From Escherichia coli (GTDB lineage Bacteria; Pseudomonadota; Gammaproteobacteria; Enterobacterales; Enterobacteriaceae): a stretch of 64,000 nucleotides of DNA. The stretch lies in the NCBI RefSeq assembly GCF_016903815.1, contig NZ_CP069973.1; one strand, written 5' to 3'. Below are positions 44,101-50,100 of this stretch, piece after piece; the first letter of the stretch is position 1; each line of letters begins with the position of its first letter. The position numbers are program-made.

Positions 44101-47100
44101 TGGATACGGCAGAAGATTACTATGCAACATACTCACCATTATGGGGACAATATCCGGAAGCATTGCTGTTTGTAAACTGGCTCTATAATCATTCCTCTGT
44201 GCTGCATGAACGGGCAGAAATCATTAAATGCGCCGAAATGCTGATGCAGGAAGATGATTTCGAAATATGCGAAAGTATTTTAAGACAGCAGGAGAAGTTG
44301 CGTGAAAGAATTGATGAGACGCTTTCTGAAAAAATTGTACAGAAATGCAGAAATATGAATGGTGAATATGTCTGGCCCTGGATATTGCCGTTTTCAGCGG
44401 CAGGCATGAAACATACTGGCATACAGTATCAGTAGATATTGCATTAGTGTATCCTGCACACAAGTAATAATTTATCCACCAATAATAACACTGTTAATGT
44501 CCCCTTCCCCTGGTTGTCAGCCAGGGGTTATCTTCTGAATATTTCTTTTGAAAAGGATAACACAGTAAATTATTTTTATGAATTATCCCATGGACTCATT
44601 AACACCCTTTCATAATGCTTTATTGTCAAACACGTTATGGCTGACATCAAAAAAAACCGGATTTCCTCTGCCAGCGGGTAATCACCTTCCCGGTGTTTTC
44701 GGTTGGTCTGGTTACTCCTGTCTGGTTATTAGCAAGATAATTGCTATAAACAGTGGAAAACTCATCGTACATAATCTGGTGATGAACATTACGCTTATTT
44801 TCCCTTGACCGGAAGAATCAGAGGCTGTGGTTTCAGTCATACAGTCCATCTCCTTTAATCGGAGTTGGCTCTTTCCCTGGCCGTATACGGCGAACAGATT
44901 CTCGTATTACCAGTTTCCCATACAAAAGTAATGCACCAACAGTTGCATCAGGACGTACAAGTCTTTGTTGTAACATATGTACCGCTTCAGTACCCAGTTC
45001 ATCGCGAGGTACATGTACTGCCGTAAGTGGCACATCTTCTATTGCAGCCAGATTAAACCCATCAATACTCATTACGGACACATCTTGTGGCACTCGTATA
45101 TTACGTTTTTTTAAAGCGTTAATTATACCTGCAGCAATGAAGTCCCCACTTGCCAAAAAAGCAGTCGGTAGCATACTTTTCTCTGTCATATCCAGCCATG
45201 CTCCGACTTTTTCTTCGGCTTCTTTGGCGCTGAAACTATTAATAGTGAGTAAATCTCTGTCATCTTTAAAGTTCTGATTCTGTCTCTCCCATGCTTCTTT
45301 AATTCCGGCAAGTCGCAGTTCCATTGTGTATCGACGTAAACACATAATGTTCATTACTCTGCGATGCCCCATTTCAAACAGAAAGTGAGACGCAAAAGCA
45401 CCAATGTTTTTGTGATCTGGAGCAACTGTGGGAAGACGCATACGTCGATCATGGCAGTTAATCATTACGCACGGCTTAGAAAAATCTGCTGCAAGATCAT
45501 GTATATGAGGATCATCAATACCAAGCAATATTGCAGCCTGTGTTTCTGCCTCATTCATGCGCGCCAGGAATTTTGAAGGTGTACTATCGAACTCATCAAG
45601 GGCACAGTAACGCAACCGAACCTCATAATGCGATAATGCCTTGCTGATGCTTTGGATTACGCGGAAATAAAAAATGTCTGTTCGCTCATCAAAAGCCCGT
45701 TGAGGAGCAAAAATGACAAGGTTGTTTAACAACATACGGCCGGATGCCATTCCATCCATAACCCCAAGCTCTCTGGCACACGCCAATACTTTCTCGCGGG
45801 CACGATAACTGGTATTAGCTTTACCCGCTAAAACCCGTGACACGGTGCTGGATGAAAGGCCTGTTCGCATGGCAATATCAGCAATCTTTAGTTTTTTTTC
45901 CATATTGTGATCTATCTCTAATTTCAAAATGAAAAAATTCTCATGGGATGGAATAGCCTGACTGCAAGGACTTCTGACTATTTTTAGAATTTATATGAAC
46001 TACTTATGAAAAAACGTGCACAATACCAACTTTTTTTCATCGCCCCCCTCTTTTATTGTGAATGAGTAGTTCCGGTTTAAGTATTAAGCCGAAAGGTAAA
46101 GTGGGATGTGGCAACCCCGAGCTGCGTTGTCGCTCGATCATTTATTACATCCGGTGGGGTGATTATGAGTCAGGATATAAATAATAATATAGCTGTCAGC
46201 AAACACCGTCGAATAATAAGACAACTACGGTGGTGGATGTTAATCCTTTTTCTAATGGGTGTCACTGTCAATTATATTACCAGAAACTCATTAGGTATTT
46301 TGGCACCAGAGTTAAAAGACAGCCTTGGAATTACAACTGAACAATACTCCTGGATTGTTGGTGGATTTCAGCTTGCATATACCCTTTTTCAGCCACTTTG
46401 TGGATGGCTAATTGATGTTATTGGGCTCAAGATTGGATTTATGATTTGTGCTTCATTATGGGGAATTGCTTGTCTTCTGCATGCAGGAGCAGGAAGCTGG
46501 ATACAGCTTGCGTTGCTTCGTTTTTTCATGGGAGGTGCTGAGGCTTCTGCGACACCTGCAAATGCAAAAATTATAGGTGAGTGGTTTCCAAAATCTGAAC
46601 GTCCTGTTGCTGCTGGCTGGGCGGGTGTCGGTTTTTCTATCGGTGCAATGCTTGCACCACCAATTATTTACTTTGCACATGCGTCATTTGGTTGGCAGGG
46701 TGCATTTATGTTTACAGGTGCACTTGCAATTCTTTGGGTTTTCCTTTGGTGGGCGTGTTATAACACACCAGAAGAGCACCCAAACTTAAGTAAAAATGAG
46801 CTCAACTTTATCCGACAGGATAACGAAGCTCCTCCGGTAAAAATGCCTTTTCTGACCGCGTTAAAAACAGTTAGTAAAAATAAACGCTTTTATGGAATCG
46901 CTATCCCTGCATTTATGGCAGAGCCAGCATGGGCTGTAATGAGCTTTTGGGTGCCATTATATCTTGCAAAAGCATATGGCATGGACCTTAAACAAATAGC
47001 TCTGTTTGCATGGTTACCATTTCTTTGCGCTGATTTAGGAAGTATTGCCAGCGGATATCTGACAAAACTCTATACCCGTCTGTTTGGGTTAAGCAGAGTA

Positions 47101-50100
47101 AATTCTGTTATTGCGTCCTCTGTAAGCGGAGCATTTCTAATGGTTTCGCTTGCTGTGATTGCTTTTATCGACAATCCATATATTGCTATTGTACTTATCT
47201 CCATTGGTGGTTTTGGTCATCAGATAATTTCCTGCATGTTAAGTGCCCTGGTCGTTGAATCTTTTGATAAGGGGCAGATGGCCACTGTTAATGGAATGCG
47301 TGGTTCAGCCGCATGGATTGCCAGCTTTTTGTTCTCACTGATTATTGGCGTTACTGCTGACAAAATAGGCTTTAACCCGCTATTTATCGCCATGGGATTT
47401 TTTGATCTTATTGGTGCTTTTTTTCTGGTTACTTTTATTGCAGAACGTCGCAAAAAACGCACCTGAGGGAGTATGTGGAGATGAAAACATTAAAAAACTG
47501 GAAACTACAAAATCAGTCAGCCCATCATATAGAGCTATTAGTTGATGGTCAGCATTCTCTTTGCCTGTATATACTCGAAGAAAATATGTTCCGGGTTCTA
47601 TTAAAACGGAAGGGGGTTTTGTCGCTGGACCGAACCTGGAGCATTGCTCCGGAAAAGGATGTCCCGTGGGAAGGGCGTCATCGCGAAGATATTAGCGGTT
47701 TTTCACTGCCGACCTGGAACATGGAGCAGAATGATGAATTACTGACAATCACGACCAGTTCATTACGCGTAATTATTCACAAGCCTTTATGGCTTGAATG
47801 GCATTATAAGGATAATGCTGGTCAGTGGCAGGAACTTGTTAATGATCGCCCTACCAGTGCTTATCTGATAAACGCTCATGGTGATGGTGTTGCACACTAT
47901 CAAAGTCGACGTAATGACGAGCGTTTTTATGGACTTGGTGATAAATCCGGGGATCTGCAACGCACAGGAAAACGCTATGAAATGCGGAACCTGGACGCAA
48001 TGGGATATAATGCAGTAAGTACAGACCCTCTTTATAAACATATTCCATTTACAATTACTCACCGTAGCGATATTAGCTTTGGATTATTTTATGATAACCT
48101 CAGCAATAGTTGGCTGGATTTAGGTAATGAAATAGATAATTATCATACAACTTACCGCCGTTGGCAGGCTGAGGCGGGAGATATTGATTATTATCTTTTC
48201 ACTGGCAGATGTGTACTTGATATCACCAAAGCCTTTGTTCGTTTGACGGGGAAAACACTCTTCGGTCCAAAATGGAGTCTTGGGTACAGCGGTTCCACGA
48301 TGCACTATACAGATGCACCGGATGCTCAGAATCAATTGATGCAGTTTATTCGTCTTTGTAAGGAACATGCTATTCCATGTGATTCTTTCCAGCTATCTTC
48401 TGGTTATACTTCTATTAATGGTAAACGCTACGTATTCAACTGGAATTACGACAAAGTTCCACACCCTAAAATGATGAGTCAGGAGTTTCATAATGCAGGG
48501 ATACACCTGGCCGCTAATATAAAACCATGTTTATTGCAGGATCATCCTCGCTATAACGAAGTAGCAGAACAAGAGCTCTTTATTCGTGACTCTGAATACA
48601 ACGTCCCGGAACGCTCCAGCTTCTGGGATGATGAGGGTTCTCATCTGGACTTTACGAACCCACAAACAGTCGCATGGTGGCAGGAAGGTGTAACCACACA
48701 ACTACTTGAAATGGGAATTGATTCCACCTGGAATGATAACAATGAGTTTGAAGTATGGGATGGGGAAGCGCGCTGTCATGGTTTTGGCAAAGAAATCGCC
48801 ATTAAACACATTCGGCCAGTAATGCCTCTTTTAATGTGCAGAGCATCTATGGAAGCACAGCAAAAATTTGCACCGAACAAACGACCATATTTGATTTCCC
48901 GCTCTGGATGCGCCGGATTGCAGCGTTATGTTCAGACATGGAGTGGGGACAACCGAACTAACTGGGATACCCTTCGATACAACACCCGCATGGGGCTGGG
49001 AATGAGCCTCTCAGGATTGTATAACATTGGTCATGATGTCGGTGGTTTTTCTGGTGATAAGCCTGATCCAGAATTATTTGTTCGTTGGGTTCAGAACGGT
49101 GTTATGCACCCCCGATTTACGATCCACTCGTGGAATGATGATCATACTGTCAATGAACCATGGATGTATCCGGAAGTAACACCCGCGATTCGTAGTGCAA
49201 TTGAGTTACGTTATCGTCTTATGCCTTATTTATATACATTATTGTGGCAGGCACATGCCGATGATGAGCCAATATTACGTCCAACCTTCCTTGATCATGA
49301 GCACGATGTTCAGACATTTGAAGAATGTGATGATTTTATGCTGGGACGCGATATTCTGGTTGCAAGTGTCGTGGAAGCAGGGCAACGACAACGACGAGTA
49401 TGGTTACCCGACAACAAAACAGGATGGTACGACTTTTACAATGGCGAATGGTTCTGTGGTGGTCAATGGATAACAATCGACGCGCCACTGGAAAAACTAC
49501 CATTATTAGTACGTGCAGGTGCAGGTATTCCTCTTAGTGAACGTATAACATACGTGAGTGAAGCGGAAGATAATCATCGTAAATTGAAATTATTCCCAAT
49601 TAAAGGAACGGGTAAATCCACCGGACTTCTGTTTGAAGATGATGGCGAAACTTGGGGATATACTGAAGGTAATGCTCTGTGGCTTGAATGGGAGCTGGAC
49701 TGCACAGCCACTACAATTGAGTTAAGAATAAACACTCATGGAGATTATCGCCCTGCATGGGAAACATTGAAAGTGATAATTCCTCAGGGAGAAAGTCGTC
49801 AACTACTGATTAACGGCATTGAGGCTTATGAATGGAATATGAACCTATCCTGTAATGATTAATTTATTGTAGAGGGTAAATCATGGCCAAATAAAGGCAC
49901 TGTAAGAGTAAAACTTATAGTGCCTTTATATACAAGCCAGATTATAACGCCATGCAATGAAACGCCCCCATGCATACGTAGATTAACTATCTCTTACCAT
50001 TTTACATATCCGAAAGAATATGTTTTAACAGAAAGGTAAAACATGAGCGATAATAAAAAAGAGCACTTCCACAATGTAATAATAAGATGGGTTATTATTT

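Follow-up and report, generated by a model that had tools for sequence, protein, structure and literature searches.

A LacI-type repressor, an ExuT paralogue and a GH31 glycosidase beside selC in Escherichia coli: a candidate cassette for glucuronate-containing alpha-glycosides

The window examined here is a stretch of 64,000 nucleotides of Escherichia coli DNA (contig NZ_CP069973.1, assembly GCF_016903815.1), with 100% identity to the chromosome of strain 7/2, in which yicI, yicJ, selC, an integrase gene, a gene for a TPR protein, a LacI-family regulator gene, a gene for a major facilitator superfamily (MFS) transporter, a glycoside hydrolase family 31 (GH31) gene, a ykgR-like open reading frame (ORF), IS1, a transporter remnant and yicL follow one another in this order (Table 1). 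An initial reading of this sequence, made without database searches (the sequence-only reading), had grouped the regulator, the transporter and the GH31 enzyme into one module at 44833-49862 and had proposed a charged alpha-glycoside, uronic or sulfo, as its substrate. All of these features are present there, with their domains confirmed by Pfam. Our analysis of the transporter, the enzyme pocket and the gene neighbourhoods of related enzymes supports a charged substrate, favours a uronic one (specifically glucuronate) and disfavours a sulfo-sugar.

Organisation of the cassette

For the MFS gene, the mechanical ORF spans 46108-47466 (+), and the RefSeq ATG at 46165 agrees with the start of orthologue alignments; the mechanical ORF of the GH31 gene covers 47475-49862 (+), with the RefSeq ATG at 47481. 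The gap between the MFS stop codon (TGA, 47464-47466) and the GH31 start is 8 nt if GTG is used or 14 nt if ATG is used, as had been noted before, and a GAGGGAG Shine-Dalgarno sequence overlaps this TGA, 9 nt 5' of the GH31 ATG. Translation of the two genes is likely to be coupled, to judge from their layout. Directly 3' of the GH31 gene lies a 33-codon ORF annotated as the small membrane protein YkgR (50043-50144). Upstream, yicI, yicJ and tRNA-Sec are found 3.7-7.4 kb from the cassette, confirming that a second GH31 gene and its transporter gene are located nearby, across selC.

Table 1. Cassette genes, predicted control sites and flanking features of the selC region (window coordinates)
Feature	Coordinates	Strand	Basis or remark
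LacI/GalR-family repressor gene	44833..45903	-	RefSeq start 45903, 356 aa; mechanical ORF to 45927
Operator O1 (predicted)	45929..45944	none	16-bp palindrome, conservation
Operator O2 (predicted), degenerate copy of O1	46006..46021	none	Conserved block
MFS transporter gene, ExuT paralogue, ACS family	46165..47466	+	433 aa; PF07690
Shine-Dalgarno GAGGGAG	47465..47471	+	Read from sequence
GH31 glycosidase gene, cytoplasmic enzyme	47481..49862	+	793 aa; Pfam, PDB sequence and fold matches
yicI	37400-39718	-	
yicJ	39728-41167	-	
tRNA-Sec (selC), island integration site	41403..41497	+	ARAGORN; RefSeq
Tyrosine integrase gene, P4-type	41797..42981	+	Arm-DNA-bind_3, Phage_int_M and Phage_integrase; Pfam, NCBIfam
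TPR protein gene	43392-44435		
IS1, right island edge, beside sugar-transporter remnant	50460..51157	-	Pfam DDE_Tnp_IS1; RefSeq

The transporter is related to ExuT

The MFS protein matches PF07690 with an E-value of 4e-58. Amongst NCBIfam models, TIGR00893 (D-galactonate transporter subfamily of the ACS family) fits best by a wide margin, but its 266 bits fall short of the 395-bit cut-off, which indicates family-level similarity and not membership of the curated subfamily model. The best PDB match is DgoT, and amongst the characterised E. coli paralogues ExuT is the closest with 43% identity over 414 aa (E 2e-119), DgoT, GarP and LgoT each showing ~25%. Neighbour-joining places the Enterobacterales proteins on a long branch of their own, sister to ExuT together with ExuT-like proteins of distant taxa. 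On this comparison of sequences, the MFS protein is a paralogue of ExuT and not its orthologue; the assignment to ACS/ExuT-like transporters, on which the charged-substrate idea had been made to depend, is thereby upheld.

In DgoT, the substrate carboxylate is held by Arg47, Tyr79 and Tyr44, Glu133 couples protons, and the substrate hydroxyls are bound by Gln164, Gln264, Ser370 and Asn393 (PMC10149257). At least 64 of 65 sequences have the equivalents of DgoT Tyr44, Arg47, Tyr79 and Glu133 (Tyr37, Arg40, Tyr72 and Glu126), so that the carboxylate residues are intact, and the hydroxyl-binding positions are mostly changed, several of them to the residue found in ExuT. The protein shares the ExuT-specific T46, H366, Q367 and G393 at pocket positions defined by DgoT with ExuT, its closest characterised relative, but differs from it by the changes S164F, R264A and T392R and by its separate branch. 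Retention of the carboxylate set, alteration of the hydroxyl positions and the long branch of its own together fit a paralogue that may have become adapted to another anionic substrate, probably a larger one. E. coli retains its own exuT, and the cassette in Enterobacterales is associated with a LacI-type regulator, not the GntR-type regulator of the exuT regulon.

The GH31 enzyme and its active site

The enzyme carries the GH31 domains PF01055 (E 1.4e-89), PF13802 (E 6e-37) and PF21365 (E 4e-23) as well as DUF5110, and its AlphaFold model (pLDDT 93.5) superimposes on the dextranase FjDex31A (6jr6) with a TM-score of 0.85. Amongst PDB entries released up to April 2026, FjDex31A (E 4e-82) and glucosidase II (GII) of the endoplasmic reticulum (ER) are the nearest solved structures by sequence and fold, both at ~26-33% identity; YicI (27% identity) and YihQ (24% identity, E 1e-31) are more distant. 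The best NCBIfam match is the alpha-glucosidase MalA, with a score of 314 against a cut-off of 800. FjDex31A and GII share the four-domain architecture and the catalytic Asp pair with the window enzyme. The motifs WNDNNEF and WSGDN, which had been reported as intact, place the nucleophile at Asp419 and the acid/base at Asp490; both align with their counterparts in FjDex31A, GII, YicI and YihQ and are invariant in 67 of 67 orthologues. Arg474, Asp519, Phe523, His549 and Trp382, Trp417 and Trp487 are also kept. No signal peptide was detected at the N-terminus of this protein or of the other clade enzymes examined, and the substrate must therefore enter the cell as the glycoside.

In the -1 subsite of CtGII, Asp443 belongs to a 'DID' motif and Asp482 contacts the 6-OH through a water molecule (PMC9061262). 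The first of these positions, which is also Asp in FjDex31A, GII and YicI, is occupied by Ser306 in the window enzyme, and the second, an Asp within 'ivDP' in neutral alpha-glucosidases and an Asn in YicI and YihQ, is occupied by Lys348. Compared with neutral alpha-glucosidases, Met274 replaces the aromatic residue of the 'SRW' or 'SR(W/Y)xY' segment (Trp or Gly in the comparison with FjDex31A and GII), Asn420 replaces the Met that follows the nucleophile, and Arg169 replaces a Trp in the N-terminal loop shaping the +1 subsite. All five residues are invariant in 67 of 67 orthologues, in an alignment where 342 of 793 columns are invariant overall. Profile-profile alignment places Lys315-Arg316 on Lys300-Arg301 of YihQ, and Phe319 and Phe523 at the positions of YihQ Trp304 and Tyr508. 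These YihQ residues (Arg301, Trp304 and Tyr508) are reportedly the sulfonate-binding triad of the sulfoquinovosidase, with Arg301 said to bind the C6 sulfonate. The search for basic or sulfonate-binding residues in the subsites that had been called for thus yields Lys348 and Arg316, and not the full YihQ triad. These alignments describe a pocket with two fewer acidic residues than that of neutral alpha-glucosidases and with additional basic residues that would lie near C6 of the -1 sugar.

A distinct clade within GH31

A search of 1.84 billion representatives returned 2,978 clusters at E <= 1e-30, of which the representatives of the best 150 clusters at 50% identity were inspected. The signature Met274, Ser306 (Gly or Ala in one sub-branch), Ser307, Arg316, Lys348, Asn420 and Arg545, which is invariant in 67 of 67 orthologues, is found in ~125 of these best 150 clusters. 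Signature-bearing clusters show 31-55% identity to the window enzyme; their sources are Paraburkholderia, gut Eubacterium, a spirochaete, fungi, a liverwort and a large number of metagenomes. Within the best 150 clusters, the canonical Trp/Tyr/Asp/Ile/Asp/Met/Phe pattern is confined to the lowest-scoring ones, which lie outside the clade. Arg169 is invariant in Enterobacterales but not clade-wide. Going by this signature, the window enzyme is a member of a large and distinct clade for which there is no solved structure. In the fold comparison, none of the PDB entries released up to April 2026 exceeded 26% identity to the window enzyme.

The clade is not uniform. In a sub-branch comprising P0125, P0127, P0132, P0134 and relatives, Gly306 and Asn549 replace Ser and His, and the one context seen pairs the enzyme with a MalK-type ABC transporter; the specificity of this sub-branch may differ. 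In a gut Eubacterium cluster of >6,000 sequences (loci L087, 283-5336, and L088), the GH31 gene overlaps the stop codon of a carboxylesterase gene (COesterase/BD-FAE type) and itself follows a GPH-like MFS gene, a pairing that hints at an esterified substrate.

Gene neighbourhoods of clade members

Gene context was scored with reference proteins in 88 loci, including 42 loci that are not of Enterobacterales type and have at least 9 kb of sequence, and 25 Enterobacterales-type metagenome loci. UxaC, UxuA or ManD occurs within 10 kb in 25 of the 42 non-Enterobacterales-type loci, and 25 of the 42 likewise have a transporter of TRAP or ExuT type, in most cases encoded immediately upstream on the same strand. 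Mannonate dehydratases of the glucuronate branch (UxuA, ManD) are frequent, whereas none of the 67 scored loci has UxaA, which acts as dehydratase in the galacturonate branch. A recurrent order is 'ExuR, DctP | DctQ DctM GH31 UxaC UxuB UxuA', ExuR-like regulators being common; as in the exuT/uxaCA/uxuAB regulon, these distant members appear to be co-regulated with Uxa/Uxu genes that stand beside an ExuR-like regulator gene. The metagenomic locus L089 combines a UxuB-type dehydrogenase, UxaC, a ManD-type dehydratase, the KDG kinase KdgK, the KDPG aldolase Eda, DctQ, DctM, GH31 and DctP; an Entomospira locus (L092) has the order GntR, DctP, DctQ, DctM, GH31, UxuA, SDR and UxaC; and in Paraburkholderia an ExuT-like MFS gene, a GH31 gene and a porin gene stand together. 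In a genome of several Mb, we estimate, a single-copy gene such as uxaC would lie within 20 kb of a given gene by chance in well under 1% of cases.

One locus (L112) bridges these distant members and the Enterobacterales cassette: its GH31 and MFS proteins are 72% and 76% identical to those of the window, and its MFS and GH31 genes, followed by a gene for a GntR/FCD regulator that is 46% identical to ExuR, are divergent from uxaC-uxuA (UxuA Pfam E 3e-145).

A different arrangement is seen in L090 (8001-15905) and L091, where the clade GH31 gene is followed by genes for a GH63-like hydrolase (GDE_C/MGH1-like), a deacetylase of the PIG-L family and an MFS protein, with UxaC convergent; this context suggests an oligosaccharide containing both GlcNAc and GlcA.

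Repressor and predicted operators

The repressor has the LacI/GalR architecture (PF00356, the LacI helix-turn-helix domain; PF13377, Peripla_BP_3; PF00532, Peripla_BP_1). Its scores against the NCBIfam equivalogs are all far under the cut-offs, and it is therefore not any of the named regulators. The sequence-only reading had placed a LacI operator somewhere in 45928-46164, and two conserved candidate sites were found there. O1 (ATGAAAAAATTCTCAT, consensus ATGAAAAnnTTTTCAT, one mismatch) lies 26-41 nt 5' of the repressor start codon and is the most conserved block of the intergenic alignment. At one mismatch or fewer, 53 of 77 intergenic regions contain this palindrome, against 0 occurrences in 1.65 Mb of flanking DNA from the same loci, and O1 is its sole match in the 64-kb window. 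O2 (ATGAAAAAACGTGCAC) is centred 77 bp from O1 and lies 144-159 nt 5' of the MFS ATG; the spacing between the two sites is 77 bp in 39 of 52 scored loci and 75-78 bp in all 52. Based on this conservation, we propose that O1 and O2 are operators to which the repressor would bind.

Several other elements of the intergenic region were considered and set aside. A CRP site at 45906-45921 is not claimed, as only its TGTGA half is conserved and it abuts the ribosome-binding region of the repressor gene. An inverted repeat at 46006-46040 (ATGAAAAAACGT / ACTTTTTTTCAT) has a second arm that resembles an extra operator half-site; it was rejected because it is confined to the E. coli copy and has no conserved counterpart elsewhere amongst the genera compared. 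Consensus scans for promoters and terminators were not used, since their counts did not exceed the shuffled expectation. The E. coli copy also lacks ~35 nt of the MFS 5' leader (window ~46080-46110) that is kept in other genera (L002, L036 and others).

Distribution of the cassette and the selC island

The full cassette is present in 329 of 5,426 complete E. coli genomes (~6%), BL21 included. Orthologues of the GH31 protein with 73-86% identity occur in Kluyvera, Klebsiella, Enterobacter, Kosakonia, Cronobacter, Salmonella diarizonae, Edwardsiella, Erwinia, Pantoea, Serratia and Pectobacterium. The divergent LacI / MFS / GH31 order is found in all 66 loci of other Enterobacterales genera with full flanks, which makes the arrangement more than a matter of chance, and the LacI gene is also divergent and upstream of the MFS gene in 23 of 25 Enterobacterales-type metagenome loci. 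In the other genera, the upstream flank holds moeB, a glycyl-radical enzyme pair, a Cof phosphatase gene and a Gig2-like (ybiU-type) gene, and the downstream flank holds genes for an ABC-F ATPase (ybiT-type) and an L,D-transpeptidase (LdtB); these genes represent conserved core synteny without pathway partners and were rejected as hints to the substrate. Neither an integrase (0 of 80) nor a further catabolic gene accompanies the cassette in the loci of other genera. The same gene order, the core synteny and the lack of an integrase or additional catabolic gene elsewhere show that these three genes are a self-contained unit of long standing in Enterobacterales, which some E. coli have on the selC island.

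In other Enterobacterales (L002-L081, e.g. L002, 143-15205), the cassette is in most cases chromosomal and sits between the Gig2-like (ybiU-type) and ABC-F (ybiT-type) genes, a site at which E. coli has no cassette; its presence at selC instead implies loss and re-acquisition. A locus labelled Chryseobacterium sp. 18061 (L026) contains an Enterobacterales-type cassette (82% identity) with the same flanks, and this assembly is probably mislabelled or contaminated.

The E. coli region has the properties of a tRNA-associated island, namely insertion at tRNA-Sec, a tyrosine integrase gene and strain-variable presence. No direct repeat of at least 14 nt derived from selC was found in 41380-51450, and at the right end IS1 adjoins a 90-nt remnant of a sugar-transporter gene (50460-51301), at the position where K-12 carries setC; it thus seems that the right island junction was remodelled. 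Strain BEN2908 has a selC island, AGI-3, that is reported to act in carbohydrate uptake; it was rejected as a carrier of the cassette, given that the carbohydrate genes on it form the fos (fructo-oligosaccharide) locus. A paper on selC islands of STEC (PMC6174562) was likewise set aside as a prior account, as the cassette genes go unmentioned there.

Proposed function and alternative substrates

The carboxylate site of the transporter, the remodelled enzyme pocket and the operon contexts agree on an anionic alpha-glycoside that yields D-glucuronate. It appears quite likely, from these comparisons, that the substrate contains glucuronate. The cassette as a whole would then probably be a substrate-inducible catabolic unit for a small anionic alpha-glycoside containing D-glucuronic acid, most likely an alpha-D-glucuronide bound with glucuronate in the -1 subsite. 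As the changes are concentrated in this subsite and include the YihQ-like Arg, glucuronate is modestly favoured as the glycone, which would make the GH31 enzyme an alpha-glucuronidase. We further suggest, more tentatively and with slightly less than even confidence, that the enzyme may be the first known case of a GH31 specificity that has gone unrecognised, namely that of a cytoplasmic alpha-D-glucuronidase with a retaining mechanism, whose clade, spread over many bacterial phyla, fungi and plants, would be marked by Ser306, Arg316, Lys348, Asn420 and Arg545.

In the mechanism that we envisage, the LacI-family repressor would occupy O1 and the weaker O2, 77 bp apart, when substrate is absent and thereby keep its own gene and the MFS-GH31 operon off, until the glycoside or a derivative of it frees the repressor from the DNA. 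The ExuT paralogue would import the glycoside by proton symport, with the carboxylate held by the TM1 Arg and two Tyr residues. In the cytoplasm, the GH31 enzyme would cleave the alpha-linkage by a retaining double-displacement mechanism through Asp419 and Asp490, with Arg316 and Lys348 taking the place of neutral or acidic surroundings at C6 and accommodating the carboxylate there, roles suggested by their homology to YihQ Arg301 and CtGII Asp482. The D-glucuronate set free would enter the chromosomal pathway of UxaC, UxuB, UxuA, KdgK and Eda, which is encoded elsewhere in E. coli. Candidate aglycones are glycerol (from glucuronosyl-diacylglycerol), myo-inositol (from plant glycosyl-inositol-phosphoceramides) and xylose (from aldobiouronic acid), and the natural substrates could accordingly include deacylated glucuronosyl-diacylglycerol, the GlcA-inositol core of plant sphingolipids and xylan-derived aldobiouronic acids.

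A number of observations weigh against an alpha-glucuronide as substrate. The nearest characterised enzymes, FjDex31A and ER glucosidase II, cleave neutral glucosides, and GII likewise has Lys-Arg at the position aligned with YihQ Arg301. Lys348 and Arg316 also occur in the sub-branch with the MalK-type ABC transporter and in the gut Eubacterium member, with its esterase and different MFS protein, and may therefore not dictate an anionic glycone on their own. The counts of 25 in 42 loci are slightly inflated by near-duplicates (L087/88, L090/91 and L092/93). Uronate genes are not adjacent to the cassette in the window and were found in only 1 of 25 scored Enterobacterales-type metagenome loci (almost never amongst 91 Enterobacterales-type loci), so that the link to glucuronate rests on distant relatives and one bridging locus; moreover, the TRAP or ExuT-type partner could import free glucuronate. 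The literature searched gave no biochemical or genetic data on any clade member. That literature also describes neither a GH31 alpha-glucuronidase nor this cassette, although an earlier in-silico prediction may exist, and a search there for a link between the cassette and the diagnostic alpha-glucosidase/palatinose cluster of Cronobacter found none.

The main alternative to glucuronate as glycone, which we regard as unlikely, is that the enzyme removes a neutral glycone (glucose or another hexose) from an acidic aglycone, as in an alpha-glycosyl-(1->x)-glucuronate or in the alpha-GlcN(Ac)-1,4-GlcA of plant sphingolipid or heparosan-like glycans. Glucuronate would still be a product in this case, and gene context reveals the production of glucuronate and not the subsite in which it is bound. 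The invariance in Enterobacterales of Arg169, in the loop shaping the +1 subsite, would fit an acid placed there, and the co-occurrence of GH31 with a PIG-L-type deacetylase, a GH63-like enzyme and UxaC in L090 suggests a multi-sugar substrate. Arg169 is, however, not conserved across the clade, whereas the changes cluster at the -1 positions Ser306, Lys348, Met274, Asn420 and Arg316, and an enzyme acting on a glucose glycone would be expected to retain the canonical Asp/Asp/Trp set.

We consider it improbable that the cassette is an ordinary system for a neutral alpha-glucoside (kojibiose, nigerose, isomaltose or similar) that has recruited an ExuT-like transporter for a neutral sugar. The best PDB matches and the best NCBIfam match are in line with such a function, as are the public annotations of the protein as 'alpha-glucosidase', but they do so at 26-33% identity and far from the MalA cut-off. 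Furthermore, three defining -1 residues are replaced, the transporter has the full carboxylate-binding set, and clade members reside in glucuronate operons with anion-specific TRAP transporters; the context of the clade is uronate-linked and not glucan-linked, unlike FjDex31A and GII. The sequence-only reading had held that its charged-substrate proposal would fail for an enzyme that groups with neutral glucosidases and has a neutral pocket. The nearest characterised relatives are indeed neutral-acting, but distant, and with a pocket containing Ser306, Lys348 and Arg316 and a clade of its own for the enzyme, the proposal stands.

An alpha-galacturonide, for example a pectin-derived oligogalacturonide, is very unlikely as the substrate. 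ExuT transports either hexuronate, UxaC likewise accepts either, and the loss of the Asp near the equatorial 4-OH through Ser306 could suit an axial O4; the absence of UxaA from the scored loci, the frequency of UxuA and ManD and the presence of UxuA in L112 argue against it. A second sulfoquinovosidase-type system for a sulfo-sugar glycoside is the least probable reading of all, for despite the alignment of Arg316 with YihQ Arg301 the positions of YihQ Trp304 and Tyr508 hold Phe, the match to YihQ is weak, sulfoglycolysis genes are absent from the window and from ~170 loci in which uronate genes are found instead, and the transporter is ExuT-like and not YihO/YihP-like.

Comparison with known systems

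A close parallel to the proposed alpha-glucuronide cassette is the system of YihQ (GH31_13) with YihO/YihP, which also pairs a cytoplasmic GH31 enzyme with a dedicated importer for an alpha-glycoside that is anionic at C6, and in which Arg301 aligns with the clade-invariant Arg316. The cassette differs in having an ACS/ExuT-type and not a GPH transporter, a LacI-type and not a DeoR-type (CsqR) regulator, and no sulfoglycolysis genes; Trp304 and Tyr508 of YihQ are not kept in the window enzyme, and its Lys348 corresponds to an Asn in YihQ. The uidR-uidA-uidB-uidC (gus) system has in outline the same logic of a repressor, a glucuronide importer and a cytoplasmic glucuronidase that delivers glucuronate to UxaC and UxuAB, and the MFS-GH31-porin order of Paraburkholderia mirrors uidB-uidC. 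In this instance, the anomer is the opposite one, and GH2, GPH and TetR in gus stand against GH31, ACS and LacI in the cassette. The alpha-glucuronidases of families GH67, GH115 and GH4 carry out the kind of reaction proposed here, in which (methyl)glucuronate is released from an alpha-glycoside, intracellular GH67 enzymes acting on imported aldouronates, but belong to unrelated families with inverting (GH67, GH115) or NAD-dependent (GH4) mechanisms; no similarity of the window enzyme to these families was seen in the searches run here. The neighbouring YicI-YicJ pair, 3.7 kb from the cassette across selC, likewise combines a GH31 enzyme (an alpha-xylosidase) with its cognate importer, yet YicI is only 27% identical, shows the canonical Asp/Trp pattern with Cys307/Phe308, is served by a GPH transporter and belongs to the E. 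coli core and not to an island.

Other genes of the window

At the start of the window (1-469) lies a frameshifted glycosyltransferase-family-8 gene at the edge of the waa (LPS core) cluster. Between yicH and yicI, an accessory operon at 30162-37105 (-), similar to the 'frz' fitness operon of ExPEC cited in PMC12928451, encodes a BglG-type antiterminator, PTS fructose-like IIA, IIB and IIC components, two class-II aldolases, a ROK protein and an isomerase of lyxose/mannose type. The region 53962-64000 contains remnants of type III secretion genes (for a SycD/LcrH chaperone and for proteins similar to YopB/SseC and IpaD/SipD) followed by eilA and by the giant inverse-autotransporter gene air/eaeX, which continues past the end of the window.

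Conclusions

If glucuronate is the glycone, a function would be assigned to a very large uncharacterised branch of GH31 (~125 of the best 150 clusters at 50% identity), and alpha-glucuronides would be added to the nutrients of Klebsiella, Enterobacter, Cronobacter, Pectobacterium and a subset of E. coli that includes BL21, which together with K-12 forms a natural presence/absence pair for the cassette. The enzyme would represent a second adaptation of GH31 to a C6-anionic sugar after sulfoquinovosidase, with a different residue solution (Arg and Lys), and the cassette would correspond both to the gus (beta-glucuronide) operon, with the alpha anomer in place of the beta, and to the sulfoquinovosidase system, with a carboxylate in place of the sulfonate. 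In practical terms, alpha-glucuronidases are of interest for the processing of xylan and the analysis of glycolipids.

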